A DNA stretch of 35,528 nucleotides from Nitrospinota bacterium (lineage in GTDB: Bacteria; UBA8248), in NCBI GenBank assembly GCA_046581755.1, contig JAYGFR010000146.1:1-35528 (forward strand), given 5' to 3'. Of this stretch, positions 1,294 through 16,897 are shown piece by piece. Below the pieces are notes generated by a model. That model was given only the letters and a program-made list of their open reading frames with translations. It did not search any database and was not told where the DNA came from. Numbering within the stretch: position 1 is the stretch's first letter; each line of letters begins with the position of its first letter. The position numbers and the translations under genes are program-made.

Positions 1294-1433
1294 ATAGTTT
1301 ACACCGGTTGAAGAAGGGTTGCGGGGGGTGGAAATTTTACCGGGATTGCTAGGCGTTCTTGGCGTATCCCCCTCCCTCCCCCGGCGTTTGGCCCGTAGGC
1401 GGCAGGGATTTACCCGGTTCCTCAAATATCGGA

Positions 1434-2396
1434 GTGATTAAAGTGACACCTTCCTATCTCGAACTTCGGCAAAGAACGCAATCCCGGGACCGCAGCCTGC
1501 GCGACAAGGTCATGACGCTCGAAGAGGCGGCCGCCCATGTCCACGACGGCGACCACGTGGCGCTGGGCGGCTCGGTCGCTTCCCGGACATCGTTCGCGAT
1601 GTTGTGGTCCTTGATCCGGGCTCGAAAAAAAGACCTTACCTTTTCGCGCTCCATCGTTTCGACTGAAGGCGATCTCATTTTCGCATCGGGCATCAGCCGG
1701 CACATTCTCACCAGCTGGTTCAGCCAGGGAATCGTTTGGGGTGTCTCCCGCGTCATGCGCCACTACACCGAGAACAAGCTGGCCCGCTTCGAGGAGTGGA
1801 GCCATATGTCCATCGGCCTCCGCTATCGGGCCGGGGCCATGGGGGTTCCCTTCCTGCCCATGCGCTCCATGATGGGTTCCGACGTCGCCGGACTGTTGGA
1901 CAATCTCCATGAAATGAACTGCCCGTTCACGGGAGAGAAGATTCTCCTGGTCCCGGCGCTCAATCCCGACGTGGCGCTCATTCATGTCCAGCGTTGCGAC
2001 CCCTACGGAAACGCCCAGTTCGACGGCCTCACGTTCATGGATTTCGACTTGGCCATGGCGGCGAACCGGGTGATCATAACGGCCGAGCGCATCATCTCGA
2101 ACGACCAGATTCGCCGCTTGCCGGACCGGACGAAAATACCGTTCTTCACCGTGGATGCTGTGGTGGAGGTTCCCTACGGGTGCGCTCCCCATGAATGCTT
2201 CGGCGTCTACGAGCCTTTTTACTCGCATATGGATTACTACGCCGAGTTGACCCGAAGCGACCCCGAAGCCGGCGCCGCCGAATACCTGAACCGGTTTTAT
2301 TACGAGCCTGCGAGCTGGACCGAGTACCTCGATCGGATCGGCCTGGATCAACTGCTTGAAGCATCCAGGAGAGGGGTGAGCATCTATGACGACTGA
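1434..2396 (+). CDS. gctA: Family I CoA-transferase subunit A (glutaconate CoA-transferase GctA-like)
   Basis: KVMTLEEAAAHVHDGD, RYRAGAMGVPFLP, CPFTGEKILLVPALNPDVALIHVQRCDPYGNA and PYGCAP motifs. GTG at 1434 is preferred over TTG at 1359, but the start is uncertain. Confidence 0.88.
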   Translation: MIKVTPSYLELRQRTQSRDRSLRDKVMTLEEAAAHVHDGDHVALGGSVASRTSFAMLWSLIRARKKDLTFSRSIVSTEGDLIFASGISRHILTSWFSQGIVWGVSRVMRHYTENKLARFEEWSHMSIGLRYRAGAMGVPFLPMRSMMGSDVAGLLDNLHEMNCPFTGEKILLVPALNPDVALIHVQRCDPYGNAQFDGLTFMDFDLAMAANRVIITAERIISNDQIRRLPDRTKIPFFTVDAVVEVPYGCAPHECFGVYEPFYSHMDYYAELTRSDPEAGAAEYLNRFYYEPASWTEYLDRIGLDQLLEASRRGVSIYDD

Positions 2397-3159
2397 GACG
2401 GGAAACTTCACGGCTTCCGAGCTTCTGTGCGTGATGAGCTCTAGGGTTCTCGAAGAGGGGCAGGTGGTCTTCGCAGGGGTGGGAATCCCCATTTTGGCGG
2501 CGACGCTGGCCCAGCGCCTTCACGCGCCGGGAGTCACGATCCTGTTCGAGGGCGGAATTATCGGCCCCCATGTGGTTCCGGGAGAACTCCCCCCCACCAC
2601 GAACGAGCAGCGCGCTTCCCGGCGGGCGAACATGATCCTCGGCATCACCGAAGTCCTCCTTCTCCTCCAGCGGGGCTATGTCGATGTGGGCTTCATGGGA
2701 GGGGCCCAGATCGACCAGTACGGGAACCTGAACAGCTCTTTCATTGGTCCGGCGGACAGCCCTTCGGTGCGCCTGCCGGGAACCGGAGGCGGGAACGACA
2801 TCGCGAGTCTCACGAAAATGATCGTCGCCATGCCGCAGGAAAAGCGCCGCTTCGTGGAAAAGGTGGACTTTGTGACGAGCCCCGGTTATCTGACGGGCGG
2901 AACCTCCCGCGTTGATTCGGGGCTGGTTGCGGGCGGCATGCACCGGGTGGTGACCGACCTCGCCATGCTGGGCTTTGAGGAGGAGTCGGGGCGGATGATG
3001 GTTCTCGAACTTCATCCGGGCGTCACGCCGGAGCGGGTGCGGGAAAACACCGGATTCGAACTCATCATCGGGCCGGACGTGGGCGTCACCGAGCCGCCCA
3101 CCGATGAGGAGTTGGCGGCTCTGCGCCATCTTGACCCCGACAAAGTGTACATAGCCTGA
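2386..3159 (+). CDS. gctB: Family I CoA-transferase subunit B (GctB-like)
   Basis: VFAGVGIP, ILFEGG (catalytic Glu position), GGAQIDQYGNLNS, RLPGTGGGNDIAS and VDFVTSPG motifs. Overlaps the subunit A stop. Confidence 0.9.
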   Translation: MTTETGNFTASELLCVMSSRVLEEGQVVFAGVGIPILAATLAQRLHAPGVTILFEGGIIGPHVVPGELPPTTNEQRASRRANMILGITEVLLLLQRGYVDVGFMGGAQIDQYGNLNSSFIGPADSPSVRLPGTGGGNDIASLTKMIVAMPQEKRRFVEKVDFVTSPGYLTGGTSRVDSGLVAGGMHRVVTDLAMLGFEEESGRMMVLELHPGVTPERVRENTGFELIIGPDVGVTEPPTDEELAALRHLDPDKVYIA

Positions 3160-3216
3160 GCCTTTTTATCCGGGAACAGCCATGAGCCGGAAAGCAAATA
3201 TGAGCCGGAGAACACC

Positions 3217-4491
3217 ATGAGCGCCGAGATCAGAAAAAAAATTCTTGCCGAGGTGGACGCGCGGCGCGAGGAAATTATCGAGTTTGTCCAGACCCTCGTC
3301 CGCATTCCGAGCGTTACGGGCAATGAGGGCGAGATTCAGAATTTCATCGCGGATTATTTGCGCGGCATGGGGCTTGAGACCGATGTCTGGGAGTCGGACT
3401 GGGAAGAGCTCAAAAAACATCCCGAGTACGTTCCCGTCACCCGGGGCTATGAAGGGCGGCCCAACGTGGTCAGCGTTTTGAAAGGGTCGGGCGGGGGGAA
3501 ATCCCTGCTCATGAACGGCCACACCGACACCGTCCCGAACGGCCCGCCTGATGCCTGGGAGTATGGCCCGCTATCGGCGGATCTGGTGGACGGCCGGGTG
3601 TACGGGCGCGGGGCCTCGGACATGAAAAGCGGCGTTGCCGCCATCATCATGGCCGCGAAATGTTTTATGGAGGCGGGGCTCAGGCCCAAGGGCGATGTCA
3701 TCCTGGATTTCGTGGTGGATGAGGAGCTGAGCGGCCACGGCACGCTGGATACGATATTACGCGGCTACACGGCGGACGCGGGGATTTGCTGCGAGACGAG
3801 CGAGAACGCCGTTCAGCCCGGCTGCATCGGGCGCATCTGGTTCGAGATTCTTGTAAGGGGAAAGGCGGCGGGGATTCAGCGCCGCTACGAGGGAGTGAAC
3901 GCTATCGATCTGGGCTACAAGATCGTCCAGGCGGTGGCTGATCTGGAAAAAAAGCGCCTCGAAACGGTATCGCATCCGCTCTACCCCAATATTATCGACG
4001 CGATTCCCTGCATGGTGGGCTCGATGGAGGCGGGGAGTTTTCCGAGCGCGTTTCCGGACACCTGTGTGCTCAAGGGAAGCCTCGCCACCGTGCCGGGCGA
4101 GGATCACGGCGCGGCCAAGCAGAGCCTGGTTGATGCGGTGGCCGAAGCCGCCCAGGCCAATCCATGGATGAAAGAGCTTCCGCCCGAGGTCAAATTCGTG
4201 GGCTACTATGCCGAGTCCGCCGCGGTCGATAAGGATCATCCCATCGTCCGCACGGTCGCCGGATGCTACGAGGAAGTATCGGGCAAGACGCCCGAGATTT
4301 CCGGGCGCCAGGGCGCGGCGGATACGCGATTTTTAAACGGTTTCGCAAACATCCCCACCGTTATTTTCGGCCCAGGCCCCACCACCCAGATGCACGCCAA
4401 CAATGAATGGGTCGCAGTCGAGGACATCATCGACGCGACGAAGACGCTTGCCCTGTCCATCGTGGATTGGTGCGGCGCGGAAGAAAGGTAA
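3217..4491 (+). CDS. M20A metallo-amidohydrolase, ArgE/DapE-family deacylase
   Basis: LMNGHTDTVP, YGRGASDMKSG, VDEE, CCE and FGPG...MHANNE zinc-binding motifs. Confidence 0.9.
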   Translation: MSAEIRKKILAEVDARREEIIEFVQTLVRIPSVTGNEGEIQNFIADYLRGMGLETDVWESDWEELKKHPEYVPVTRGYEGRPNVVSVLKGSGGGKSLLMNGHTDTVPNGPPDAWEYGPLSADLVDGRVYGRGASDMKSGVAAIIMAAKCFMEAGLRPKGDVILDFVVDEELSGHGTLDTILRGYTADAGICCETSENAVQPGCIGRIWFEILVRGKAAGIQRRYEGVNAIDLGYKIVQAVADLEKKRLETVSHPLYPNIIDAIPCMVGSMEAGSFPSAFPDTCVLKGSLATVPGEDHGAAKQSLVDAVAEAAQANPWMKELPPEVKFVGYYAESAAVDKDHPIVRTVAGCYEEVSGKTPEISGRQGAADTRFLNGFANIPTVIFGPGPTTQMHANNEWVAVEDIIDATKTLALSIVDWCGAEER

Positions 4492-4497
4492 AATTAG

Positions 4498-5454
4498 ATG
4501 GCGGGTAAAGACGTCAAATTCGGAATCGCGATGCGGAACTTCACCGCGTATCCCCAGCTTCCCGACGCCGGGGCGCTGATCGACTACGGGGTGAAGATGG
4601 AGGAGCTGGGCTTCGAGTCGGTCTGGGTGTGGGACCACATCCTGCTCGGGGTGGATCCTCACTTTCCGATCATCGAATCCCTCACGCTGCTGACGGCGGT
4701 GGCCGCGCGGACCGAAAAAATCAAGCTGGGCACGGGGGTTCTCGTGCTCCCGCTGCGCAATCCTCTGGTCCTGGCGAAACAGCTCTCCAGCATCGACCTG
4801 ATTTCGGGCGGCCGTCTTCTCGTCGGGATGGCCTCGGGCTGGTACAAGCGCGAGTTCGACGCGGTGGGCGTTCCCTTCGAGAAGCGCGGAAACCTCATGG
4901 ACCAGAACATCGAGATCATCACCCGGCTCTGGACGGAGGATATGGTCCGCGCCGAATACGGCCAGTACAACCTGCGGAATTCCGTCATGTACCCCAAACC
5001 GGTGCAGAAGCCGCGCCCGCCGATTCTCATCGGCGGCTATGTGGACCGGGTGCTGAAGCGGGCCGGAGAAAAAGGCGACGGCTGGCTCACCTACTTCTAT
5101 ACGCCGGAGAGTTTTACGAAATCGTGGGCAAAAGTTCTCCGCTTCGCCGAAGACGCCGGGCGGGACCCATCGGCGCTCGAGAGCACGAACCAGCTGCCCT
5201 TCATGGTGGGTTCATCCCGCGCGGAGGTCGAAGGCCCCATGAACGAATGGCTGAACACCGAGTGGGACTACGCCGACTGGAGCGATTCCACCGCGAACAG
5301 CGCCATCATGGGTACGGCCGATGAGTGCGTGGAGCAGCTCCAGGCGCACATCGACACCGGGGTGAATCGGCTGATTTTCGTTCCTTATAAATATGAGATG
5401 GAACAAGTCGAGATTTTAGCGAAGGAAATTGTGCCTCGTTTGAAAGGTCTCTGA
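4498..5454 (+). CDS. Luciferase-like (LLM) flavin- or F420-dependent oxidoreductase 1
   Basis: GFESVWVWDH, KLGTGVLVLPLRNP, IDLISGGRL, PKPVQKPRPPILIGG and GDGW motifs. Confidence 0.9.
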   Translation: MAGKDVKFGIAMRNFTAYPQLPDAGALIDYGVKMEELGFESVWVWDHILLGVDPHFPIIESLTLLTAVAARTEKIKLGTGVLVLPLRNPLVLAKQLSSIDLISGGRLLVGMASGWYKREFDAVGVPFEKRGNLMDQNIEIITRLWTEDMVRAEYGQYNLRNSVMYPKPVQKPRPPILIGGYVDRVLKRAGEKGDGWLTYFYTPESFTKSWAKVLRFAEDAGRDPSALESTNQLPFMVGSSRAEVEGPMNEWLNTEWDYADWSDSTANSAIMGTADECVEQLQAHIDTGVNRLIFVPYKYEMEQVEILAKEIVPRLKGL

Positions 5455-5495
5455 TCGCTGCTTCGAGAGGCCTGTGTTCTTTGACGGGGGAGCCG

Positions 5496-6531
5496 ATGCA
5501 AACGGATGAACTGGCGTGGGGCTCATCAAGCGCGTTTAGCGAGAATATTTTCGAGGCGGTGGGCGGCACGCCCCTGGTCAGGCTTGGCCGGCTGGCGCGA
5601 GGGGTGAAGCCGGAAATATTCGCCAAGGTCGAGTGGTATTCGCCCACGGGCAGCCTGAAGGACCGGATATACACGCAGATGATCTCCCGGGCCGAGGCGC
5701 GGGGGGATGACGATCCTGGAGTGCTCCTCGGGCAACGCGGGGATCGCCTGCGCGGCGGCGGCCGTCAAGGACTATGCCTGCATCATCGTCATGCCCGAGA
5801 TGATGAGCGCCGAGCGGAAACTGATGATCCATGCCTACGGGGCGGAACTCGTTACCATCCCCGGCGGCGAGAGCGATGTGGATGTCGCCCTCAAGCGGAT
5901 GAAGGAGATGGCGGCATCCGCGCCGGAGCGCTACTGGGTGCCGGGCGAATTCGAAAACCTCGATAACGTGGACACCCACTACACGACCTCGGGGCCGGAG
6001 GTATGGGAACAGCTCGAGGGAAACGTCGATGCGGTGATCGCCGCGGTGGGAACCGGCGGCTGGCTCACCGGGGTGGGGCGGTTTTTGAAGGAAAAAAACC
6101 CCGCCCTCAAGATATACGGGGTCGAGCCCACGGAGTCGCCTCTGATCAGCGGAGGGCTCTGCTGCGGGCACGGCATCGCCGGCATCGGAGGCGGGTTGAT
6201 ACCCAATATTCTGGACCTCTCGCTGCTCGACGGGATCATCACGAGTTCGACCGAGGAGGCGCTCCGGATGGCGCGGCGCGCTTCGCGCGAGGAGGGTCTG
6301 TTCTACGGAATTTCCTCGGGCTGCAACCTGGCCGCTGCGCTTAAATTTGCGCGCCCGTGTCCCGAGACGGGACGGATCGTGACGATTTTCGGGGATTCGG
6401 GCCAGCGCTATTTTTCCACCCCGCTCTGCCACGATGAGGCGGAGATGGAGGCGGCGCTTCAAAATGTGGTGGAGGGGGATCGCGATGCGATGCTGCGAAA
6501 GTTCCGGAAAACCTGGGACATCATCGATTGA
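5496..6531 (+). pseudogene. Frameshifted PLP-dependent cysteine-synthase-family gene (paralog of the next gene)
   Basis: The N-terminal part (GGTPLVRL...KVEWYSPTGSLKDRIY...AEARG) and the C-terminal part (MTILECSSGNAG...) lie in different frames. Comparison with the downstream paralog implies a 14-nt deletion at the G6 run 5701-5706. Confidence 0.82.
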
Positions 6532-6598
6532 TCCGGATATTTTTTCGAAACCGCCGCGCTGTACGAGCGGGGAATACACGAAACGAAGTGAACGCTAA

Positions 6599-7654
6599 AT
6601 GACGATTCAACGGCGCGCGTGGGATTCATACCGGCGCTATTCGGGACATATTTTCGACGCTATCGGCGGTACGCCACTGGTGCGGCTGAACAAAGTGAGC
6701 GCCGGCTTCGAGCCGGATATTTTCGTTAAGCTGGAGTGGTACTCGCCGACGGGCAGCCTCAAGGACCGGATTTACCAGAATATGCTCACCAAAGCCGAAG
6801 AGCGCGGGGACCTCAAGGCGGGGATGACGGTGCTGGAGTGCTCGACCGGCAACGCGGGGATCGCCTGCTCATTCGTGTCGGTGATGTTGGGCCACCCCTG
6901 CATCGTCGTGATGCCCGAGGGGATGAGCGATGAGCGGAAAAAGCTCATGCGCGCCTACGGGGCGGACCTTGTGTTCACCCCGGGCGGGGAGAGCGATGTC
7001 GATCTCGCTCTGGAAAAACTCGAAGAAATCCGCTCCGCCGATCCGGATAAATACTGGGTGCCCTCCCAGTTCGACAATCTTGACAACAACGAAGCCCACT
7101 ACCTGACGACGGGTCCGGAGATTTGGGAACAGCTCGGCGGCAAGGTGGACGCCGTGATCGCCTCTCAGGGGACCGGCGGCTGGGTGAGCGGAGTTGGAAA
7201 ATTCATCCGGGAGCAAAGTCCGGATGTGCGCCTGTATGCGGTCGAGCCCGAGGAGTGTCCGCTTCTGAGTGAGCGGGGCTGGGGCCCGCACGGGATCGAG
7301 GGCATCGGAGACGGTTTTGTCCCCAGGGCGCTGGACCTTTCTCTCTTGAACGGAATCGTAACGACAACGACGGATGAATCGCTCGAAATGGCCCGGCGGC
7401 TTGCCCGCGAGGAGGGTATTTTTTGCGGCATCTCATCGGGGTGCAACGTGGCGGCGGCGATCAAACTGGCTCGCTCACACCCCGAGCTCGGCGGCATCGT
7501 CACGAACATCAACGACACGGGGCAGCGTTATTTCACGACCGCCCTTTGCGGGGAGGAGAAACACGTCGAAATCCCCGAGCGGGATCACGCTGTGGACGCC
7601 TACAGCGCGGCGGAGCTGGATAAATACGCTCCTGAATGGGAGATCATCACCTAA
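6599..7654 (+). CDS. PLP-dependent cysteine synthase/CBS-family enzyme (fold type II), divergent subfamily
   Basis: IGGTPLVRL, KLEWYSPTGSLKDR (PLP Lys), ECSTGNAG, HYLTTGPEIWEQ, GTGG, HGIEGIG, EEGIFCGISSG and DTGQRY motifs. Confidence 0.92.
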   Translation: MTIQRRAWDSYRRYSGHIFDAIGGTPLVRLNKVSAGFEPDIFVKLEWYSPTGSLKDRIYQNMLTKAEERGDLKAGMTVLECSTGNAGIACSFVSVMLGHPCIVVMPEGMSDERKKLMRAYGADLVFTPGGESDVDLALEKLEEIRSADPDKYWVPSQFDNLDNNEAHYLTTGPEIWEQLGGKVDAVIASQGTGGWVSGVGKFIREQSPDVRLYAVEPEECPLLSERGWGPHGIEGIGDGFVPRALDLSLLNGIVTTTTDESLEMARRLAREEGIFCGISSGCNVAAAIKLARSHPELGGIVTNINDTGQRYFTTALCGEEKHVEIPERDHAVDAYSAAELDKYAPEWEIIT

Positions 7655-7686
7655 ATGCGGCCGGTAAACGGGCAGGACTTGAACTC

Positions 7687-8553
7687 ATGCTCTATCTCCA
7701 GATTCTGATCAACAGCATTCTCCTCGGGGGTATCTACGCCTGCATCGCCGTGGGCTTTTCGCTCGTTTGGGGCGTGATGAACATCCTGAATATTTTGCAC
7801 GGCACCTTCTTGATGTTGGGCGGATACGTTACCTTCTGGTTGTTCAAGCTCTACGGTGTGGATCCGTTTTTCTCGCTGCCGGTTTCGGCTGCGGTGATGT
7901 TCTGCTCCGGCTACGTCATCCAGCGCGGGCTAATCAACAAAATCGTCCGCGCGCCGATGTTCATGTCGCTTATTCTCACGTTCGGGCTTCAGATGATCGT
8001 CGTGCGCCTGGCGATTTATTTTTTCACGGGCGATTTTCGAACGGTCCAGCCTTCGTATGCCAGCTTTTCTCTTTCATTTTACGGGCTGATCATTCCCTTC
8101 GTCCGGGTGGCCATTTTTGTTCTGGGCCTGATTCTTACCGCCCTTTTGTTCTGGTTCCTGGCGCGGACGCGCACGGGCCGGGCGATACGCGCCACGCGGA
8201 TGGACCTGGATTCCGCTCAGTTGATGGGGGTGAACATCGGGAATATCTACGCCATCACCTACGGGCTGGGCGCGGCTGTGGCGGCCACCGCCGGTTCGCT
8301 CGTGAGCGTCGGATTCGCCATCTCTCCGGTAAGCGATGTCGAGTTTCTCTCCAAATCCTTCATCATCTGCACGATCGGCGGGCTGGGAAATATCATGGGC
8401 GCCCTCGCGGGCGGGCTGATCCTGGGGTTGGTCGAGAATTTCGGCGCCCTCTATCTGGGGCCGGGCCTCCAGAATGCCGTCGGCTACATGGTGCTCATTC
8501 TGGTGCTCTTCATCCGGCCGACGGGCCTGATGGGCCGCAAGGGGTTCGAATAA
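7687..8553 (+). CDS. livH: Branched-chain amino acid-type (HAAT) ABC permease
   Basis: QILINSILLGGIYACIAVGFSLVWGVMNILN, RTRTGRAIRA and IGGLGNIMGA motifs. ATG at 7687. Confidence 0.9.
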   Translation: MLYLQILINSILLGGIYACIAVGFSLVWGVMNILNILHGTFLMLGGYVTFWLFKLYGVDPFFSLPVSAAVMFCSGYVIQRGLINKIVRAPMFMSLILTFGLQMIVVRLAIYFFTGDFRTVQPSYASFSLSFYGLIIPFVRVAIFVLGLILTALLFWFLARTRTGRAIRATRMDLDSAQLMGVNIGNIYAITYGLGAAVAATAGSLVSVGFAISPVSDVEFLSKSFIICTIGGLGNIMGALAGGLILGLVENFGALYLGPGLQNAVGYMVLILVLFIRPTGLMGRKGFE

Positions 8554-8554
8554 C

Positions 8555-9538
8555 ATGTTCAGGCCCTGGACAAAAAATCAGTGGATATTGATGGGGATGG
8601 GTGCGGTCGCCCTGATTCTCCTTCCCTCATTTTCGGAAAACGACGTCATCCGCAAATGGATGGACATCCTGCTGATCGCCATCCTGGCGATAAGCTGGAA
8701 CTTCATCGGCGGGCTGACGGGCTACCCCTCGTTTGCGCCGGCGGCCTTCTTTGGCCTGGGGGCATACGTCACCGCCATCTTGATGAAGGCCGGATTCAAT
8801 TTTTTCTTCACCCTCGTGATCGGCTCCGCCTTCGGCGGGATGATCGCGCTGGCGCTCGGGATTCCGATCCTGCGTCTTCGCGGGCATTATTTCGCCATCG
8901 CCACCTTCGGGGTGGCCGAGTTTTTCCGCGAGCTGGCCGACAACCTTCGCATCACCGGCGGGGGGGACGGCATCAATCTCCCTCAAATCACGGGGGGGCC
9001 GGACTATTTCACCCGCTTTTTCTATTTCTCGATGCTGGGCGTCGCCGTATTGGCATTTCTGGTTCAGTACTTCGTCACCCGCCACCGCCTGGGGTACGGG
9101 CTGGTGGCCATCCGGGAGAACGAAGCAGCCGCGGCGATGACCGGAATCGACACCACGAAATACAAGGTCATCGCTTTTGTTCTCTCCTCCGTTTTTCCCG
9201 CGATGGCGGGCGGGGTGTACGCCTATCGGGCCGCGTTTCTGGAGCCGATTGACGTCTTCGACATCCTTTTTTCGATCAAGGCCATCGTCATGACGATGCT
9301 CGGCGGGGTGGGGACGGTCATGGGCCCGATTGTGGGCGCGTTCATTATGGAATACCTGGCCGATTACCTCTGGGGCGCCTTCACGGAGTTCCACAGCGCG
9401 TTCCTGGGAATCATCATCGTTTTGATCGTTTTGTTTATTCCCCGGGGGCTGATGGCGATAATCCAGGAACTGCGGCTCAAGGGCTGGAGATCTCTGGGAC
9501 CCATTCTGCGCAGCAATGTCCAGAGGTTCAAGGTATGA
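8555..9538 (+). CDS. livM: HAAT ABC permease
   Basis: SWNFIGGLTGYPSF, LRLRGHYFAIAT, AIRENEAAA and MLGGVGT motifs. Confidence 0.9.
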   Translation: MFRPWTKNQWILMGMGAVALILLPSFSENDVIRKWMDILLIAILAISWNFIGGLTGYPSFAPAAFFGLGAYVTAILMKAGFNFFFTLVIGSAFGGMIALALGIPILRLRGHYFAIATFGVAEFFRELADNLRITGGGDGINLPQITGGPDYFTRFFYFSMLGVAVLAFLVQYFVTRHRLGYGLVAIRENEAAAAMTGIDTTKYKVIAFVLSSVFPAMAGGVYAYRAAFLEPIDVFDILFSIKAIVMTMLGGVGTVMGPIVGAFIMEYLADYLWGAFTEFHSAFLGIIIVLIVLFIPRGLMAIIQELRLKGWRSLGPILRSNVQRFKV

Positions 9539-10293
9539 GCGAGGCGGTGCTCGAAGGGCGGGGGATCACCAAGCGCTTCGGCGGCCTGACGGCGGTCTCG
9601 GCGGTGGATTTCACCTTGCGCAAGGGCGAAATTCTCGGCCTGATCGGACCCAACGGCGCGGGGAAGACCACCCTCCTGAATTGCATCACGGGGTTCGACT
9701 CGCCGGACGAGGGCGAGGTTCTCTTGCAGGGGGAGCGGATCGAAACCCTCAAGCCACACGCCATCACGCGGAAGGGTATCGCCCGCACGTTTCAGATTGT
9801 CCAGCCGTTTCCGAGTCTCACCGTGCTGGACAACGTGACCATGGGAGCCCTGTTCGGCGCCCATAAAAAGGGGCAAGAAGTTGCCCGCGCGCGAGAGGCC
9901 GCGAAAGATAAACTCGAAATGGTCGGCCTGATCGAAAAGGCGGACCATTTGGCGTCCGAGCTTACCCTCGCCGAGCGAAAGCGGCTTGAACTGGCGAAAT
10001 CACTCGCCACCGAGCCCGAGATTCTTTTGCTCGACGAGGTGAATGCGGGGCTGAACCCGGCCGAGATTCAAGTCGCGATCTCACTGATCCAAAAGATCAG
10101 GGAGGGGGGCGTCACCATATTGGTGATCGAGCACCTGATGAAGGTCATTATGGGGCTCTCGGACCGCGTCATCGTTTTGCACCACGGGGAAAAAATCGCA
10201 GAAGGGCCTCCCCGGGAGGTGACGAGCGACGAGCGGGTGATCAAGGCGTATCTGGGCGATAAATACGCCGCAATGATGGACAAGATGAGCTGA
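9535..10293 (+). CDS. livG: HAAT ABC ATP-binding subunit
   Basis: KRFGGL, Walker A GPNGAGKTT, GIARTFQ, LLLDE, IEH and KAYLG motifs. ATGA overlap with livM. Confidence 0.92.
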   Translation: MSEAVLEGRGITKRFGGLTAVSAVDFTLRKGEILGLIGPNGAGKTTLLNCITGFDSPDEGEVLLQGERIETLKPHAITRKGIARTFQIVQPFPSLTVLDNVTMGALFGAHKKGQEVARAREAAKDKLEMVGLIEKADHLASELTLAERKRLELAKSLATEPEILLLDEVNAGLNPAEIQVAISLIQKIREGGVTILVIEHLMKVIMGLSDRVIVLHHGEKIAEGPPREVTSDERVIKAYLGDKYAAMMDKMS

Positions 10294-10309
10294 GGCGGGG
10301 CGCAAGGAT

Positions 10310-11047
10310 ATGACGGCATCACCGGAAAACGGAGCGAATCTGCTGGAGGTCCGGGATCTCCAGGGTGGATACGGCGACGTGCAGGTCCTCTGGGGGATCG
10401 GGCTCGATGTCAGAGCCGGTGAAATCGTTGCGATTGTGGGAAGCAACGGCGCCGGAAAATCGACCTTTTTGCGTATGCTCTCGGGCGTTCTGCCGCGCCG
10501 GGCGGGGACGGTTTTCCTCGAGGGCGAGTCCATGGAGGGCATGGGTCCCGACGTTGTCGTTGCGAAGGGGATTTCGCATGTGCCCGAGGGCCGAGGCCTC
10601 TTCGCGGCGATGAGTGTCGAGGAGAATTTGTTGATGGGCGGATACGCCCGGAACATGACGGATGATGAGCTCGGCGGGGAGCTCGACCGGGTGTACGGGT
10701 TTTTCCCGCGCCTGGCGGAGCGGAAAAACCAGCTGGCGGGAAGCATGTCGGGAGGGGAGCAGCAGATGTGCGCCATCGGGCGCGGGTTGATGGCGCGGCC
10801 CAAGCTTCTTCTTATCGACGAGCTTTCCCTCGGCCTGGCGCCCCGGCTGGTGGAGGAGCTTTGCGGATTTGTGAAGCAAATTAACGAGGAAGGGGTGACC
10901 ATCATGCTCGTGGAGCAGGATGTCCTGACGGCTTTCGAACTCGCCAGCCGGGCCTATGTATTCGAATCCGGGCGGGTGGCGATGTCTGGTCCGACGGGGG
11001 AGTTGCTGGAAAACCCCGAGGTGAAAAAAGCGTATCTGGGCATTTAG
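10310..11047 (+). CDS. livF: HAAT ABC ATP-binding subunit
   Basis: GSNGAGKST, HVPEGR, MSGGEQQM, LIDELSLGLAP and VEQ motifs. Confidence 0.92.
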   Translation: MTASPENGANLLEVRDLQGGYGDVQVLWGIGLDVRAGEIVAIVGSNGAGKSTFLRMLSGVLPRRAGTVFLEGESMEGMGPDVVVAKGISHVPEGRGLFAAMSVEENLLMGGYARNMTDDELGGELDRVYGFFPRLAERKNQLAGSMSGGEQQMCAIGRGLMARPKLLLIDELSLGLAPRLVEELCGFVKQINEEGVTIMLVEQDVLTAFELASRAYVFESGRVAMSGPTGELLENPEVKKAYLGI

Positions 11048-11135
11048 CCCGGTTGATTGGAGCGGAAACACAAGGGGCGGGCCTTGCTCGAATGCATGGC
11101 CCGGTGAAGTGAACATCCAATGGGAGGCGCATAAC

Positions 11136-12347
11136 ATGAAACGTCGTGGATTGTTGTTTACACTCGTTGCGGTATTCCTTTTTTCGCTGGCCGTGGCTGG
11201 AATTCCCGGTCCGCAAGAGGCCCAAGCGGCAAGAATGATCAAGCTGGGCGCGGCCCTGCCGCTCACGGGGCCCCTGGCCACCGAGGGCAAGAAGCAGCGG
11301 GCGGGTTATGAGATTTGGCGCGAGCGTGTGAACGCTCAGGGCGGCGTGAACGTCGGCGGCAAAAAGATGAAGGTCAAGATCATTTACTTCGATTATGAGA
11401 GCAAAACCCCCACGGCCACCAAGCTGGCCGAAAGGCTCATCACCCGGGAAAAGGTGGACCTGATTCTCGGTCCCTTCGGAAGCGGAGCGACCAAATCCGT
11501 CGGCGCCATCACCGAGCGCTATCAGATTCCCATGATCGCCCCGGTGGCCAGCTCCGAGCCGATTTTCAGCCAAGGCTACAAATATATGTTCGGGTTGCTG
11601 GCGCCGAACTCCTTTTTGCCCAACAACTTCTTTGCGCTTCTCAAAAAGCAGAACCCGAGGCCCAAAACGATGGCCTTCGCCACGCGGAATGACTTTTTCC
11701 CGCGCTATATCACCAAGGCGATTCGCTCGCAGGCGAAGAAACACGGATTCACGGATGTCTACTACGCCGAGTTCCCGAAGGACTCTAAAGACCACTCCAC
11801 CTGGCTCACGGTGGTGAAGGGCAAAAAGCCGGACGTCTTGATGATAGCGGGCTACCTGCCGGACACCCTGCTCGCCACCAAGCAGGCGAACGAGCTGGGC
11901 GTTAAACCGAAAATCCTGTTCACCATGGTCGGGCCGGTCTACTCGCAGTTCACCGATGCGCTCGGATCGACCGCGAACAACATTCTGACTGCGGCCTGGT
12001 GGGGAGAGGCGCTGGACTATAAGGGCAACTTTATCGGAACCGCCCAGGACTTCGGCAAGATCTGGAGAAAGAAATTCAACAAGGAGCCGGACTACGTGGC
12101 AGCGGCTTCGACGGCGGCGGGTATCGTGGCGCAGCGGGCTTTCGAGGCCGCCGGCTCCTTGAACAAGAAAAAAGTCCGGGACGCCATCGCCAATACCAAT
12201 ATCCAGACTTTCTTCGGTCCCGTGAAGTTCGATAAGCGCGGCCAAAACACCGCGAGCGCCATCGTTCTCTTTCAGGTGCAGGGCGGAAAGCGCAAGACGG
12301 TGTGGCCGCCGAGCGTGGCCAACGGCAAGTTCATTTACCCCAGATAA
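11136..12347 (+). CDS. HAAT ABC periplasmic substrate-binding protein (LivK/LivJ-like)
   Basis: Signal peptide ending near AQA. IKLGAALPLTG, VDLILGPFGSG and TFFGPVKFD motifs. GGAGG SD before ATG 11136. Confidence 0.9.
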   Translation: MKRRGLLFTLVAVFLFSLAVAGIPGPQEAQAARMIKLGAALPLTGPLATEGKKQRAGYEIWRERVNAQGGVNVGGKKMKVKIIYFDYESKTPTATKLAERLITREKVDLILGPFGSGATKSVGAITERYQIPMIAPVASSEPIFSQGYKYMFGLLAPNSFLPNNFFALLKKQNPRPKTMAFATRNDFFPRYITKAIRSQAKKHGFTDVYYAEFPKDSKDHSTWLTVVKGKKPDVLMIAGYLPDTLLATKQANELGVKPKILFTMVGPVYSQFTDALGSTANNILTAAWWGEALDYKGNFIGTAQDFGKIWRKKFNKEPDYVAAASTAAGIVAQRAFEAAGSLNKKKVRDAIANTNIQTFFGPVKFDKRGQNTASAIVLFQVQGGKRKTVWPPSVANGKFIYPR

Positions 12348-12417: not shown

Positions 12418-13221
12418 ATGCCGACTATCCGGCTACCGAACGATGACGAAGTGCCCGAAGCGGCCAGAGAGCTGGTTAAGCGGATCAAGACCCGCGAAAA
12501 GCGCGTGTTCGGGATCGATACGCTTTCGAACGTCTGGCGGGCGATGGCCCATCATCCCGAATACATGCACGCGAATTGGGAACGATCTCGCGCGACCATG
12601 CAGCGGGGCGATGTGCCTCCGCTCATCAAGGAGATGGTCGCCTCGTCGGTTTCGGTCATGAATGCGTGCGAGTACTGAATGGACTCTCATATCGCCGCGG
12701 TCATGCGGATGGGAATTGATGAGAAGGGAATTACAGAGCTGATCGGCCTTGCGGATCACGTATCGGGTATGAACAAGGTCGCTTTCGGCCTCTTGCTGGA
12801 TGAGGAGGACGGGGACGGCGCGCCGCTCCTGCCCTATCCGGAGGAGAGCGAGATCGAACCCTCCGTCCGCGAGATGCTCTCCGAGGTGGAGGAGATGGAG
12901 TCGGCCCGGCTGGGCCGGCCGGGCGTGCCGGCCTACTGGCGCTCCCTGGCCCGGAACCGGCATTACTTCGGATCAACATGGAAAAAGCACCGCCTCATGC
13001 TGGACGGAGGGGTGCTCGATCCGGAGGCGAAGGCGGCGGTTGGCCTGGGCGTGAGCGCGACGAACGGGAGCCGCTATTTCATCCGGTATTTTCACGCGGC
13101 CCTGGTCAATATCGGCTGGGAGCCGGGGCGTATCCTGGAGATTTTCGGGGTGGTCGATCACTACAACAGCTTCAACACCCTGGCGACTGGGATGCAGATC
13201 GAGTCGGACATCAAGCCGTAA
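12418..13221 (+). CDS. AhpD/CMD-like peroxidase-fold selenoprotein, 267 aa, with Sec at the in-frame UGA 12676-12678
   Basis: Two abutting in-frame ORFs read ...KEMVASSVSVMNAC-E-Y-[TGA]-MDSH.... This matches the AhpD-like E-x-x-A-x-x-V-S-x-x-N-x-C-x-Y-C-x-x-x-H motif with UGA at the second Cys. A SECIS-like hairpin follows. Confidence 0.88.
12685..12714 (+). promoter_or_regulatory. Putative bacterial SECIS element
   Basis: Lower stem TCTCAT/ATGGGA (one G-U pair), ATCG bulge, upper stem CCGC/GCGG, and apical loop GGTCAT beginning with G, 20 nt after the UGA. Confidence 0.7.
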
Positions 13222-13252: not shown

Positions 13253-14107
13253 ATGGAATACATACGCGCCTCGTCTGTCGATGAAGCCATTGCCGCCGCC
13301 GGGTCGGGCGCCGCCATCGTGGCGGGCGGGACGAACCTCGTGCCCGATGTGCTCTTCGGGCGGAACGCGGTGGAGCGGGTGGTCGATATCAGCCGCCTGG
13401 ACGAGTTGCGATTTATCGAAAGCGCCGGCGGTCGAATCCGCATGGGGGCGCTTGCGACGGTGACGGACCTGCTCGGATCGGACCTGATCCAGCGGGAGGC
13501 AACGCCGCTGCACGAGAGCGCCGTGGAATTCGCGGCCCCCCTGGTCCGCAACCGGGCCACGGTGGCGGGCAATATCATGGACGCATCTCCCGCCGCGGAC
13601 CTGGCTCCGCCCCTGCTCGCCCAGGACGCTGATGTTGAGCTGACCTCGGCGGCGGGCCGGCGGACTCTTCCGCTTTGCGAATTTTTCCTGGACTACCGGA
13701 AGACAGCCGTCCGGTCGGGGGAACTCGTGACGGCAATTTCGATACGCCCGCTGGGCGAGGGTGGCCGGGCCGCCTATTGCAAACTCCAGCTCCGGCGGGC
13801 GATGGCCATTTCAGTGGTGAGCGTGGCGGTCGCCCTTTGGATGAACGAGGACACCTGCGTGGACGCCGGCATAGGCCTCGGCGCCGCCGCCGCGGTGCCG
13901 TACCGGGCGGAAGCGGCCGAGGAGGCTTTGCGGGGCCGGGTGGTTGGCGAGGCGGAAATCGATGCGGCGGCGGACGCCGCCCGCGAGAGCGCATCGCCCA
14001 TCGATGATGTCCGTGCCTCGGTGGACTACCGGAGGAAAATGTGCGGGGTGCTTGTGCGGCGCATGTTGCGGAAGGCGATGGGATTGCCCGAGGCCGCGCG
14101 AGCGTGA
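13253..14107 (+). CDS. Xanthine dehydrogenase-family FAD-binding (medium) subunit
   Basis: VAGGTNL, VRNRATVAGNI..ASPAAD and PIDDVRASVDYR motifs. Confidence 0.92.
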   Translation: MEYIRASSVDEAIAAAGSGAAIVAGGTNLVPDVLFGRNAVERVVDISRLDELRFIESAGGRIRMGALATVTDLLGSDLIQREATPLHESAVEFAAPLVRNRATVAGNIMDASPAADLAPPLLAQDADVELTSAAGRRTLPLCEFFLDYRKTAVRSGELVTAISIRPLGEGGRAAYCKLQLRRAMAISVVSVAVALWMNEDTCVDAGIGLGAAAAVPYRAEAAEEALRGRVVGEAEIDAAADAARESASPIDDVRASVDYRRKMCGVLVRRMLRKAMGLPEAARA

Positions 14108-14144
14108 GGCGCGCCTTTTATCCGATGAATGAGGAAGTGGGACC

Positions 14145-14627
14145 ATGAGCGATTATGAGATTCGCCTGGTTGTGAACGGCAAGAGCGAGACGGTGACCGC
14201 CGAAGGCGGCGAAACCCTCCTTCGCGCATTGCGCAGGATGGGCCATGCCGATGTCAAACTCAGCTGCGAGGGCGGCGACTGCGGGGCATGCGCGGTGATT
14301 CTCGACGGAGTGGCCGTGAACGCCTGTCTGGTCTTCGCGGCTCAGGCGGATGGATGTGAGGTCACCACCGTCCGGGGAATCGGGACCGAGGACGGCCTTC
14401 ATCCGATCCAGCTCCGAATGATCGAAAAAGGCGGGGTGCAGTGCGGCTTCTGCACCCCCGGGGTGATCGTCTCCGCCAAGGCGCTCATCGACGAAAACCC
14501 GGACCCCACCCGGGAGGACATTCAGCGGGGCCTGGCTGGAAATCTTTGCCGCTGCACGGGCTACAAGAAAATTTTCGAGGCCGTCGAGGCGGCCGCCGGG
14601 GACATCCGGAAAGGAGACGGCGCATGA
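14145..14627 (+). CDS. Xanthine dehydrogenase-family (2Fe-2S)2 small subunit
   Basis: CEGGDCGAC...NAC, QCGFCTPG and GNLCRCTGY motifs. Confidence 0.95.
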   Translation: MSDYEIRLVVNGKSETVTAEGGETLLRALRRMGHADVKLSCEGGDCGACAVILDGVAVNACLVFAAQADGCEVTTVRGIGTEDGLHPIQLRMIEKGGVQCGFCTPGVIVSAKALIDENPDPTREDIQRGLAGNLCRCTGYKKIFEAVEAAAGDIRKGDGA

Positions 14628-16897
14628 GCGAGCGCATAATTGGCCGTCCCATGCCCATCATCGACGCCGTGGAGAAGGTCTCGGGCGCGACAGTTTTCAT
14701 CAACGACCTGGAGCTTCCCGGCGCGCTTGTCGGCAAGGCGCTCAGAAGTCCGCATCCCCACGCGAGGATTTTGAACATCGATACATCGCGGGCGGAGCGC
14801 CTTCCCGGGGTGGCGGCCGTGCTCTCGCGGAACAACACGCCGGAGGCGCCCTTCGGAATCAACATCAAGGATGAGGCCGCGTTCTGCCGGGAGAAGGTCC
14901 GCTACGAAGGCGACGAGGTGGCCGCCGTCGCGGCGGTGGACGAGGACACCGCGCGGGAGGCGCTTTCGCTTATCGAGGTGGAATACGAGGTTCTCCCCTC
15001 CGCGACGGACCCTTTCGCCGCCCTGGAAGAGGGGGCTCCCATCGTGCACGATTACGCCTCCGGAAACATCGCCAACCAGTTCCATATCAAGCGGGGCGAA
15101 ATCGACGAGGCGTTCAAGAACGCCGAGGCCGTCTTTTCGGACGATTTTCATACCCACTTCGCGCACCAGGCATATATCGAGCCCACCGGCTGCGCCGCCC
15201 GGTGGCATCCCGACGGGCGCATCTCTCTATGGGGCTGCCTCCAGTCGGTTTTCCTGATCCCCACCTTCATGCTCTCTCCGGTCATGGGGATGCCGGCCGG
15301 CAAATTTCGGGTGACGCAGACCAAGCCCGGGGGCGCTTTCGGCGGAAAGCTCGACGTGAAGGCCGCACTGATGGCGGCCATGCTCAGCCGGGCGGCCCAG
15401 AAGCCGGTGAGGTTCATGCTCTCCCTCGAGGAAGATCTCGTTTCCATGCGCCCCCGGATGCCGGTCCATATCTCCCTCGAATCCGCCTGGAATAAAAACG
15501 GCGCGCTGGCTGGAAAGCGGGTCAAAATCGTTGCCGAAAACGGCGCTTATTGCTCGCTTTCGCCTGCTATCATGAGCTCCATCGCGCTCCGCACCGATAA
15601 TCTCTACAAAACCCCGGCGGCGGAGATCGAGGGCAAGCTTGTTTACACCAACGTCATTCCCTCGGGACAGATGCGGGGTTTCGGCAACGTTCAGGCCACC
15701 TATTCATGGGAGAGTCACCTCGACAACGTGGCCGATGGCCTGGGGATCGACCCGGCGGAACTTCGCCTCAAAAACTATGTGGAAACGGGAGACCTCACCA
15801 TCCATGGCTGGAAGATCGAAAGCTGCGCCGTGGCAGACGCCACCAGATACGTGGTTGATAAAATTGATTGGAAGGCCAAGCGCGAACAGGGCGGCAAGGG
15901 ACGCGGGGTCGGTCTCGCGAGTTGCATCCACGTAACGGGCAACAAGGGCTTTTCCGCCGCACTCGGTCCCGACGGTACAGACCCATCGAGCGGGGTGGTG
16001 CGGATCGACGAAGAGGGCCAGGTGGAAATCTGGTCGGGCGAGTCCGACCTTGGCCAAGGCGCGACCAGCGTGATGGCTTACATCGCCTCGGAAGTCCTGG
16101 GAATTCCGGTTGCCCGCTTCAAGGTGCCCCCGACCGATACGGGCTACATGCCCTACGGGCTGGGGGCGTTCGCGAGCCGAATCACCCTCCTCGCGGGAAA
16201 CGCTGTCAAGCTCGCTGCCGAGGATGCCCGGAAGAACCTGCTCGAGGCGGCCGCCGAGGCGATGGAAATTCCAGCCTCCGACCTTGAGATCGTAGAGGGG
16301 GAGGTGATGGCGAAATCCCTCTCGGACCGGAGCATGCCGGTGGGAGAAGTTGTCCGGAAAGCCGGAAGCATCATCGAGGGCAGCGGAAAATGGCTGGCCG
16401 GGGGAGACGTTCTGGACGATCAAAAATACGGCAACCCCTCGACGACATACTCCTTCAGCACCCACGCCGCCGAGGTGGATGTCGATATGGAGACCGGGGT
16501 CGTCACCGTGCTTCAGATTTGCGCCGGGCACGATCCGGGCCGGGTCATCAACCGGCTCGGCGCGGAGGGCCAGGTCGAGGGCGGCGTGGTTCAGGGAATG
16601 AGCTACTCCATGATGGAGGGGCTCGCGCCGGACGCCGGCCATGTGCGCGGCCGGAATTTTCACGACTATCTCATCGCCACCTCGATGGATATCCCTCCGG
16701 TGGAGCACGAATTTTTTGAATCCATGGACCCGCATGGTCCATATGGAGCGAAGGGCCTGGCCGAGGTGGCGATCAATCCCATCACCGCCGCCATCTGCAA
16801 CGCCATCTATCACGCCACCGGCGCACGTGTGCGCTCGCTGCCCTTCACGCCTGAGCGTGTCCTGACGGCTATCGACGAGGTGCGCGCCGGATCGTAA
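14624..16897 (+). CDS. Xanthine dehydrogenase-family molybdopterin-binding large subunit
   Basis: Real start is ATG 14624 (ATGA overlap). LRSPHPHARI, GGAFGGK, MRGFG, DLGQG, FASR, GQVEGG and GAKGLAE motifs. Confidence 0.93.
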   Translation: MSERIIGRPMPIIDAVEKVSGATVFINDLELPGALVGKALRSPHPHARILNIDTSRAERLPGVAAVLSRNNTPEAPFGINIKDEAAFCREKVRYEGDEVAAVAAVDEDTAREALSLIEVEYEVLPSATDPFAALEEGAPIVHDYASGNIANQFHIKRGEIDEAFKNAEAVFSDDFHTHFAHQAYIEPTGCAARWHPDGRISLWGCLQSVFLIPTFMLSPVMGMPAGKFRVTQTKPGGAFGGKLDVKAALMAAMLSRAAQKPVRFMLSLEEDLVSMRPRMPVHISLESAWNKNGALAGKRVKIVAENGAYCSLSPAIMSSIALRTDNLYKTPAAEIEGKLVYTNVIPSGQMRGFGNVQATYSWESHLDNVADGLGIDPAELRLKNYVETGDLTIHGWKIESCAVADATRYVVDKIDWKAKREQGGKGRGVGLASCIHVTGNKGFSAALGPDGTDPSSGVVRIDEEGQVEIWSGESDLGQGATSVMAYIASEVLGIPVARFKVPPTDTGYMPYGLGAFASRITLLAGNAVKLAAEDARKNLLEAAAEAMEIPASDLEIVEGEVMAKSLSDRSMPVGEVVRKAGSIIEGSGKWLAGGDVLDDQKYGNPSTTYSFSTHAAEVDVDMETGVVTVLQICAGHDPGRVINRLGAEGQVEGGVVQGMSYSMMEGLAPDAGHVRGRNFHDYLIATSMDIPPVEHEFFESMDPHGPYGAKGLAEVAINPITAAICNAIYHATGARVRSLPFTPERVLTAIDEVRAGS

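Follow-up and report, generated by a model that had tools for sequence, protein, structure and literature searches.

Two open reading frames (ORFs) that share one frame in the window (i.e., the whole stretch of 35,528 nucleotides of Nitrospinota DNA that was analyzed) almost certainly constitute a single gene for a selenoprotein, and we infer that selenocysteine (Sec) is inserted at residue 87 of the product. Very likely, the product is a 267-residue protein predicted to comprise a fused pair of AhpD/CMD units, and we tentatively propose that it reduces an oxidized compound brought in by the importer encoded upstream (Table 1). The tandem layout with one site and the link to the importer are additions to the known class of CxxU AhpD/CMD selenoproteins, whereas the knowledge of Sec decoding is unchanged by this gene.

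Table 1. Positions of the tandem Sec gene, its elements, and its neighbors in the window.
Feature	Positions	Strand	Evidence or remark
Single coding sequence of the tandem AhpD/CMD-type protein, 267 aa (TGA read as Sec)	12418..13221	+	Pfam CMD score, structure model
In-frame TGA, putative Sec87, at the second-Cys position of the AhpD CxxC motif	12676..12678	+	Codon conservation, Cys homologs
Candidate SECIS: upper stem CCGC 12695-12698 / GCGG 12705-12708, loop GGTCAT 12699-12704, invariant G 12700	12695..12708	+	Pairing in 41/41, frozen codons
Whole hairpin with the weaker lower stem 12685-12690 / 12709-12714	12685..12714	+	79% of the lower-stem cells paired
Unit 1 (residues 1-130), similar to the single-unit AhpD core PDB 2ouw	12418..12807	+	phmmer E 7e-14; Z 10.9, rmsd 2.2, 130 aligned
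Unit 2 (residues about 135-267), degenerate copy	12820..13218	+	Alignment to unit 1
Active-site hairpin of unit 1: E72, C84, Y86, U87, H91	12631..12690	+	Spacing as in M. tuberculosis AhpD
LIV-type ABC importer (two permeases, two ATPases, and a binding protein at 11109-12347), immediately upstream	7636..12347	+	Co-occurs with the Sec gene
Xanthine-dehydrogenase (XDH)-family molybdoenzyme (FAD, 2Fe-2S, and Mo subunits), directly downstream	13253..16897	+	Also found without the Sec gene
Upstream core: CoA-transferase A and B, M20 deacylase, luciferase-like monooxygenase, two cysteine-synthase-like genes	1359..7654	+	

The frame runs through 86 codons, the TGA, and a further 180 codons to a TAA, and ordinary ORF calling yields two ORFs of 86 and 180 aa. 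The original prediction held that the second ORF continues the frame of the first and that the two form one 267-aa Sec protein. The translation across the TGA reads N-A-C-E-Y-U-M-D-S-H, confirming the former, and the latter is supported by the conserved TGA, the Sec machinery, and the Cys homologs described below. The joined protein scored 61.6 bits against Pfam CMD (PF02627; gathering cut-off 23), while the two halves gave no match and 26.4 bits. Each half is present in the databases as a protein of its own, and in close relatives the halves carry consecutive NCBI accessions labeled "hypothetical protein", precisely the annotation that had been anticipated. None of the 57 close database homologs (146-468 aa) is full length, and the annotation, wrong in every one of these entries, is now corrected.

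We searched 51 genomes of the phylum and obtained 36 matches with E < 1e-50, comprising 31 orthologs (55-100% identity) and 5 paralogs (39-43%). The TGA was found in all 36 matches, falling on codon 87 in 31/31 orthologs, and it occupied the same column in 41/41 rows of the family alignment, in which four more distant paralogs and one locus labeled Acidimicrobiaceae were added to the 36. The comparison of Cys with TGA that the original prediction had proposed was made on the best 150 matches among cluster representatives: 87 of the 98 homologs that span the column possess Cys there, and of the others among the 150, 9 stop exactly at residue 86, 42 start after residue 87, and 1 does neither. 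The codon is also covered by contigs of two runs, X8 (DNA) and X16 (an RNA library), for which no difference is listed; run X7 covers it as well but may be the source of the DNA studied, and X15 does not reach it. The TGA in 31/31 orthologs and the matching contigs of X8 and X16 rule out a TGC or TGT misread in sequencing. It is exceedingly improbable that the codon is an error or that UGA is read as Trp or Gly genome-wide, readings for which we found no favorable point: TGA ends 2207 reading frames of at least 250 codons in the source genome, many orthologs terminate with TGA, and the homologs carry Cys, not Trp, at this column.

A true stop, separating two translationally coupled proteins or marking a conserved broken gene, would agree with the ATG that directly follows the TGA in the source genome and with the databases, which hold both halves and no full-length form among the close homologs. 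Nevertheless, just 2 of the 31 orthologs have ATG after the TGA, the others encoding Ile (28) or Val (1), so that a coupled restart is not conserved. Furthermore, the break would fall within the catalytic helix, both halves are conserved (55-94% identity), codons 93-97 are frozen, and full-length Cys homologs exist. We thus consider a true stop very improbable and retain the Sec reading. Separately, the ortholog at locus L055 (G003:C75) has a second in-frame TGA at codon 229, in unit 2, where homologs possess no Cys; this codon is probably a nonsense change or an error.

The source genome (96.5% complete) possesses selA, selB, selC, and selD, the four genes without which the Sec reading would have failed, all above the family cut-offs. 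selA and selB reside on one contig, tRNA-Sec (selC) has the anticodon tca, and selD bears an in-frame TGA of its own. In the phylum, selA was detected in 49 of the 51 genomes, and the ten most selenoprotein-rich genomes given for BSepDB include three under GTDB UBA8248. The source genome also contains yqeB of the labile-selenium molybdenum hydroxylase system (G000:C86:44735-45517, L098) and may thus use selenium in a second way.

The arms of the hairpin, its upper stem, its loop, and the spacing of 20 nt between the UGA and the loop all lie where they had been predicted. The loop was also predicted to open with the conserved G: the GGTCAT loop is real, but the conserved G is its second base (12700), as the first base is G in 31 and C in 10 of the 41 aligned relatives. 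The strong evidence for this element comes from silent sites. Among the 101 codons with at least four synonyms whose residue is conserved in at least 25/31 orthologs (usage being counted where the residue is kept), only four used a single codon, and these four (93, 94, 95, and 97) coincide with the upper stem and loop; the mean fraction of non-majority codons over the 101 was 0.32. The RNAalifold consensus contained the 4-bp upper stem in 41/41 sequences, and pairing reached 88% in the true register against 34-47% in slid registers. In the 4 most distant sequences, both bases of one upper-stem pair differ, although covariation in one pair of one paralog group is weak by itself. It is this conservation, chiefly the freezing of silent sites, and not stability that lifts the hairpin above chance.

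Three further arguments for the hairpin were dropped. The folding z-scores (+0.42 to -1.84 over 5 windows) are not significant, so that stability cannot serve as proof of a SECIS. The bSECIS model, which demands a loop of 3-9 nt, a stem of 4-16 bp, a G in the first two loop positions, a spacing of 16-37 nt, and an energy of at most -7.5 (PMC13188914), was applied with our own script. The hairpin passes it, with a 6-nt loop, a 4-bp stem, a spacing of 20, and an energy of -12.9 kcal/mol, but of 500 ordinary TGA stops in the source genome, 70 (14%) pass as well, and a pass alone is weak evidence. The lower stem was rejected as a conserved element owing to its weak pairing, the innermost pair being broken in 28 of 37 distinct rows, and to its absence from the consensus fold.

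Judged from the alignment, the protein consists of two AhpD/CMD units in tandem, in which the second site appears catalytically dead. A gapless alignment of residues 2-130 with 136-264 covers 129 aa at 25% identity (E 1e-19), and unit 2 has A206, S218, F221, and F225 where unit 1 has E, C, U, and H, with Tyr retained. Neither both Cys nor the His was found in unit 2 in any of the 30 orthologs counted. Full-length tandem homologs with Cys exist at 20-32% identity, and 11 of the 13 aligned full-length tandem homologs bear CxxC in unit 1. In a structure model with Cys placed at residue 87 (pLDDT 94, pTM 0.92), the two units are predicted to fold as a fused AhpD/CMD pair, which would have only one redox site, C-x-x-Sec. 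The closest fold match of the model was B. xenovorans 2q0t (258 aa; Z 20.2, rmsd 2.8, 225 aligned), which fits the whole tandem fold at an identity of only 13%. It was followed, at Z 16-18, by AhpD-like proteins, including those of S. pneumoniae (Z 17.9, rmsd 2.4, 176 aligned) and M. tuberculosis (1gu9; Z 17.0, rmsd 2.6, 170 aligned), and by the debrominase Bmp8. R. rubrum 2ouw resembles one unit but is a single-unit protein with CxxC; the titles of 2ouw and 2q0t read uncharacterized or putative.

The residues E72, C84, Y86, U87, and H91 share their spacing with the Glu118/Cys130/His132/Cys133/His137 relay of M. tuberculosis AhpD, and P. aeruginosa PA0269 has the five-residue relay with Tyr at the His132 position, as in the tandem protein (PMC3141380). 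The tandem protein is distinguished from both by Sec in place of the second Cys, by its 267-aa tandem form, and by an identity of about 10% over the fold; no ahpC was found among the scanned window proteins. A fused pair with one active and one degenerate site has been described for Sestrin2 and bacterial fused AhpD dimers (PMC4674687, PMC11429811), and Cys125, Tyr127, and His132 of Sestrin2 align with C84, Y86, and H91. Yet Sestrin has larger halves and one Cys, and the similarity is weak (E 8e-5; Z 9-11). Sestrin is thus an analogy in layout, not a relative by family membership.

As for family models, the protein passes the domain models PF02627 and TIGR00778 (AhpD core domain; 33.5 against a cut-off of 27.8 bits, with the E-x11-C-x-Y/H-C-x3-H relay present) and reaches no family-level NCBIfam cut-off. 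Scores fell below the cut-off for TIGR01926 (AhpD-like selenoprotein, 178 positions; 44.6 vs 81.8 bits, matching residues 3-100 only), the equivalog NF041238 (AhpD-related (seleno)protein; 26.6 vs 175 bits), and TIGR00777 (AhpD proper; 24.6 vs 191.95 bits), and NF041047, NF041537, and NF053654 gave no match at E 0.01. These three and NF041238 share the AhpD-type site with Sec and show weak cross-matches to family members. In contrast to NF041238, which is matched at model positions 182-255 of 357, the tandem protein has its Sec in the N-terminal unit.

CMD-like (PF02627) and AhpD-like (TIGR01926) CxxU selenoproteins were described in 2005 from the Sargasso Sea (PMC1088965), are treated also in PMC9312934, and are among the commonest selenoproteins of marine metagenomes, with 299 and 70 sequences in Table 2 of PMC2398784. 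Table 1 of PMC13188914 (2026) gives all AhpD/CMD CxxU families as predicted and none as experimentally verified. The tandem protein agrees with these families in its CMD/AhpD domain, in CxxU, in a SECIS that closely follows the UGA on its 3' side, in its marine origin, and in being split by gene callers, and with the curated CMD-like CxxU family (PMC13188914/BSepDB) in domain PF02627 and motif. The two fused units and the dead second site may set it apart. Since BSepDB was built by tblastn of 64,762 genomes with known families, the gene or a relative is probably included already. A tandem CxxU AhpD beside a LIV importer was not found in the passages of openly accessible papers that were searched. 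A plasmid search returned 64 records, all below 60% identity (27-35% in the 10 listed), and the top three matches span ~400 bases and hence represent single-unit genes. In a quick-search tree of 40 rows, 3 changes are required to explain the Sec label, and Cys rows on two long branches lie among Sec rows; as this tree has no root, we make no claim on origin.

The importer, the Sec gene, the molybdoenzyme, and the upstream core form a same-strand run. Of the 51 genomes, 28 have an ortholog of the importer's binding protein, and in each of these it adjoins a tandem Sec gene (an ortholog in 24, a paralog in 4); the 20 genomes in which no Sec gene was found yielded no such ortholog. Because the genomes are kin, these counts stand for few independent events, and absence from an incomplete assembly is no proof. 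In the remaining 3 genomes with a Sec gene, the binding-protein gene lies in pieces beside it in two and is missing in one. The link to the importer spans two paralog groups that are about 40% identical. An XDH-family subunit is encoded within about 1.5 kb of the Sec gene in 28 of 30 ortholog loci, but an obligate link between the two was rejected since the Mo subunit ortholog (70-76% identity) was found in 10 of the 20 genomes without a Sec gene, three of them single-contig. Five of those 10 loci were fetched; in all five, the core cluster is kept in the same order and importer and Sec gene are jointly absent, with a 93-nt piece of a permease gene left in one. A single deletion that removed neighboring genes could produce the same pattern of co-occurrence.

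Some loci speak against the link to the importer. In six divergent orthologs (L050-L055) no binding-protein gene was found within about 1.5 kb, and four of them adjoin a different Mo subunit. The most distant group (L061-L064) has none of the window's neighbors within about 1.5 kb, and two loci of this type, read more widely, lie among unrelated genes. At divergent ortholog loci L094, L097, and L124, a gene for a PhzF-like isomerase directly follows the Sec gene. The best solved-structure matches bearing on the importer's ligand reach only E 4e-26. Between positions 11000 and 14200, the scans returned no promoter-like site and 5 terminator-like sites against 3.3 expected, and with these numbers the scans are uninformative; from the binding-protein gene to the FAD subunit, the forward strand has none of the latter. 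Parts of the stretch are covered by contigs of two RNA libraries, although contigs tell nothing of transcription, strand, or level, and a lack of coverage elsewhere carries no meaning. The first cysteine-synthase-like gene (window 5481-6531) lies in two frames, with a shift near a G run at about 5700, and matches as one piece in locus L119; it is either an assembly error or a broken gene. Five genomes (G001, G002, G003, G004, and G007) possess at least 20 XDH-family Mo subunits each (E < 1e-150; no more than 21 candidates were scored), along with two or three Sec paralogs of the tandem type.

Redox chemistry of the AhpD type is, in our view, highly probable for this protein. In AhpD, the second position of CxxC is the attacking one. 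By extension, SelB would bind the hairpin loop and deliver Sec-tRNA at codon 87, and the His91/Glu72/Tyr86 relay would keep Sec87 deprotonated. The selenolate may then attack an O-O, S-S, or S-O bond, Cys84 would resolve to an Se-S bond, and a cellular dithiol would re-reduce the enzyme. Unit 2 would take the place that the second subunit occupies in a homodimer. In Sestrin2 it is the first Cys that is used, as opposed to the second position, Sec87, proposed here.

Ranked by likelihood, the candidate substrates are the ligand of the importer, general peroxides, and then those of dehalogenation and of molybdoenzyme upkeep. The Sec gene travels with an amino-acid-type importer and its product therefore likely acts on an imported compound, so that we tentatively favor a substrate tied to the importer, most likely an oxidized sulfur amino-acid derivative. 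The importer link makes the question testable through the ligand of the binding protein. A general antioxidant, that is, an AhpD-like peroxidase or peroxiredoxin reductase to which the importer is incidental or which protects flavo- or molybdoenzymes, is possible, though we hold it less probable: the full AhpD relay is present, PA0269 and Sestrin2 reduce peroxides with the same hairpin (PMC3141380, PMC4674687), and the source genome has 23 CMD-type matches, 11 with TGA, but the Sec gene co-occurs tightly with one ortholog of the importer, and does so in both paralog groups, which argues otherwise, and no peroxiredoxin gene was found among the scanned window proteins.

We think it rather unlikely that the protein belongs to an unmodeled, non-antioxidant subfamily serving as the first, dedicated enzyme for what the co-inherited LIV-type importer binds and acting on an organosulfur or halogenated amino-acid derivative. 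The cleaved or reduced product would then feed the cysteine-synthase-like, deacylase, and monooxygenase genes of the cluster, and this role, if true, would be the first concrete substrate lead for the ocean-abundant AhpD/CMD selenoproteins. In the S-methyl-cysteine operon of B. subtilis, a redox partner is included and has a role. The same operon comprises an importer, monooxygenases, and a deacetylase (PMC6323116), and the analogy of the gene cluster to it may be taken as a lead only.

Non-peroxide chemistry on an imported or molybdoenzyme-derived compound, such as reductive dehalogenation, is improbable. Bmp8, described as a CMD homolog that dehalogenates (PMC7918430), reaches a fold score level with those of the AhpD proteins (Z 17.8, rmsd 2.1, 173 aligned), and the DNA of the window occurs in marine metagenomes; against this, a common fold shows no function, the identity to Bmp8 is 13%, and no halogenase was found among the scanned window proteins. 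More improbable still is a partner in the maturation or repair of the downstream molybdoenzyme, for which the nearby XDH-family subunit and the yqeB gene could be cited, since half of the genomes without a Sec gene retain the Mo subunit ortholog. Reduction of the importer's ligand thus stays our preferred reading.

The 23 Pfam CMD matches of the source genome (G000) are spread over 19 contigs (loci L099-L118), so that AhpD-type selenoproteins are greatly expanded within this single genome. The 11 with an in-frame TGA consist of 10 CxxU and 1 UxxC, and 8 of the 11 pass the scripted SECIS model. In several of these hairpins, the loop lies 20 nt after the UGA and the G is placed as in the tandem gene. 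The UxxC gene (G000:C246:5601-6125; L103, L129), in which the TGA replaces the first Cys codon, has a strong hairpin 29 nt on, i.e., 20 nt after the second Cys codon, and extends beyond the stop of its relatives. We rejected UxxC as a conserved new motif because CxxU, with the hairpin at 20 nt, is what its two nearest relatives (45-46%) show; Sec has either moved within the motif or the TGA is a nonsense change. Lastly, two tandem AhpD-type proteins, P0095 and P0121, end right after the C-x-Y of the second unit, the first unit of P0095 being degenerate, and are probably arranged the other way round, Sec being carried by the C-terminal unit.
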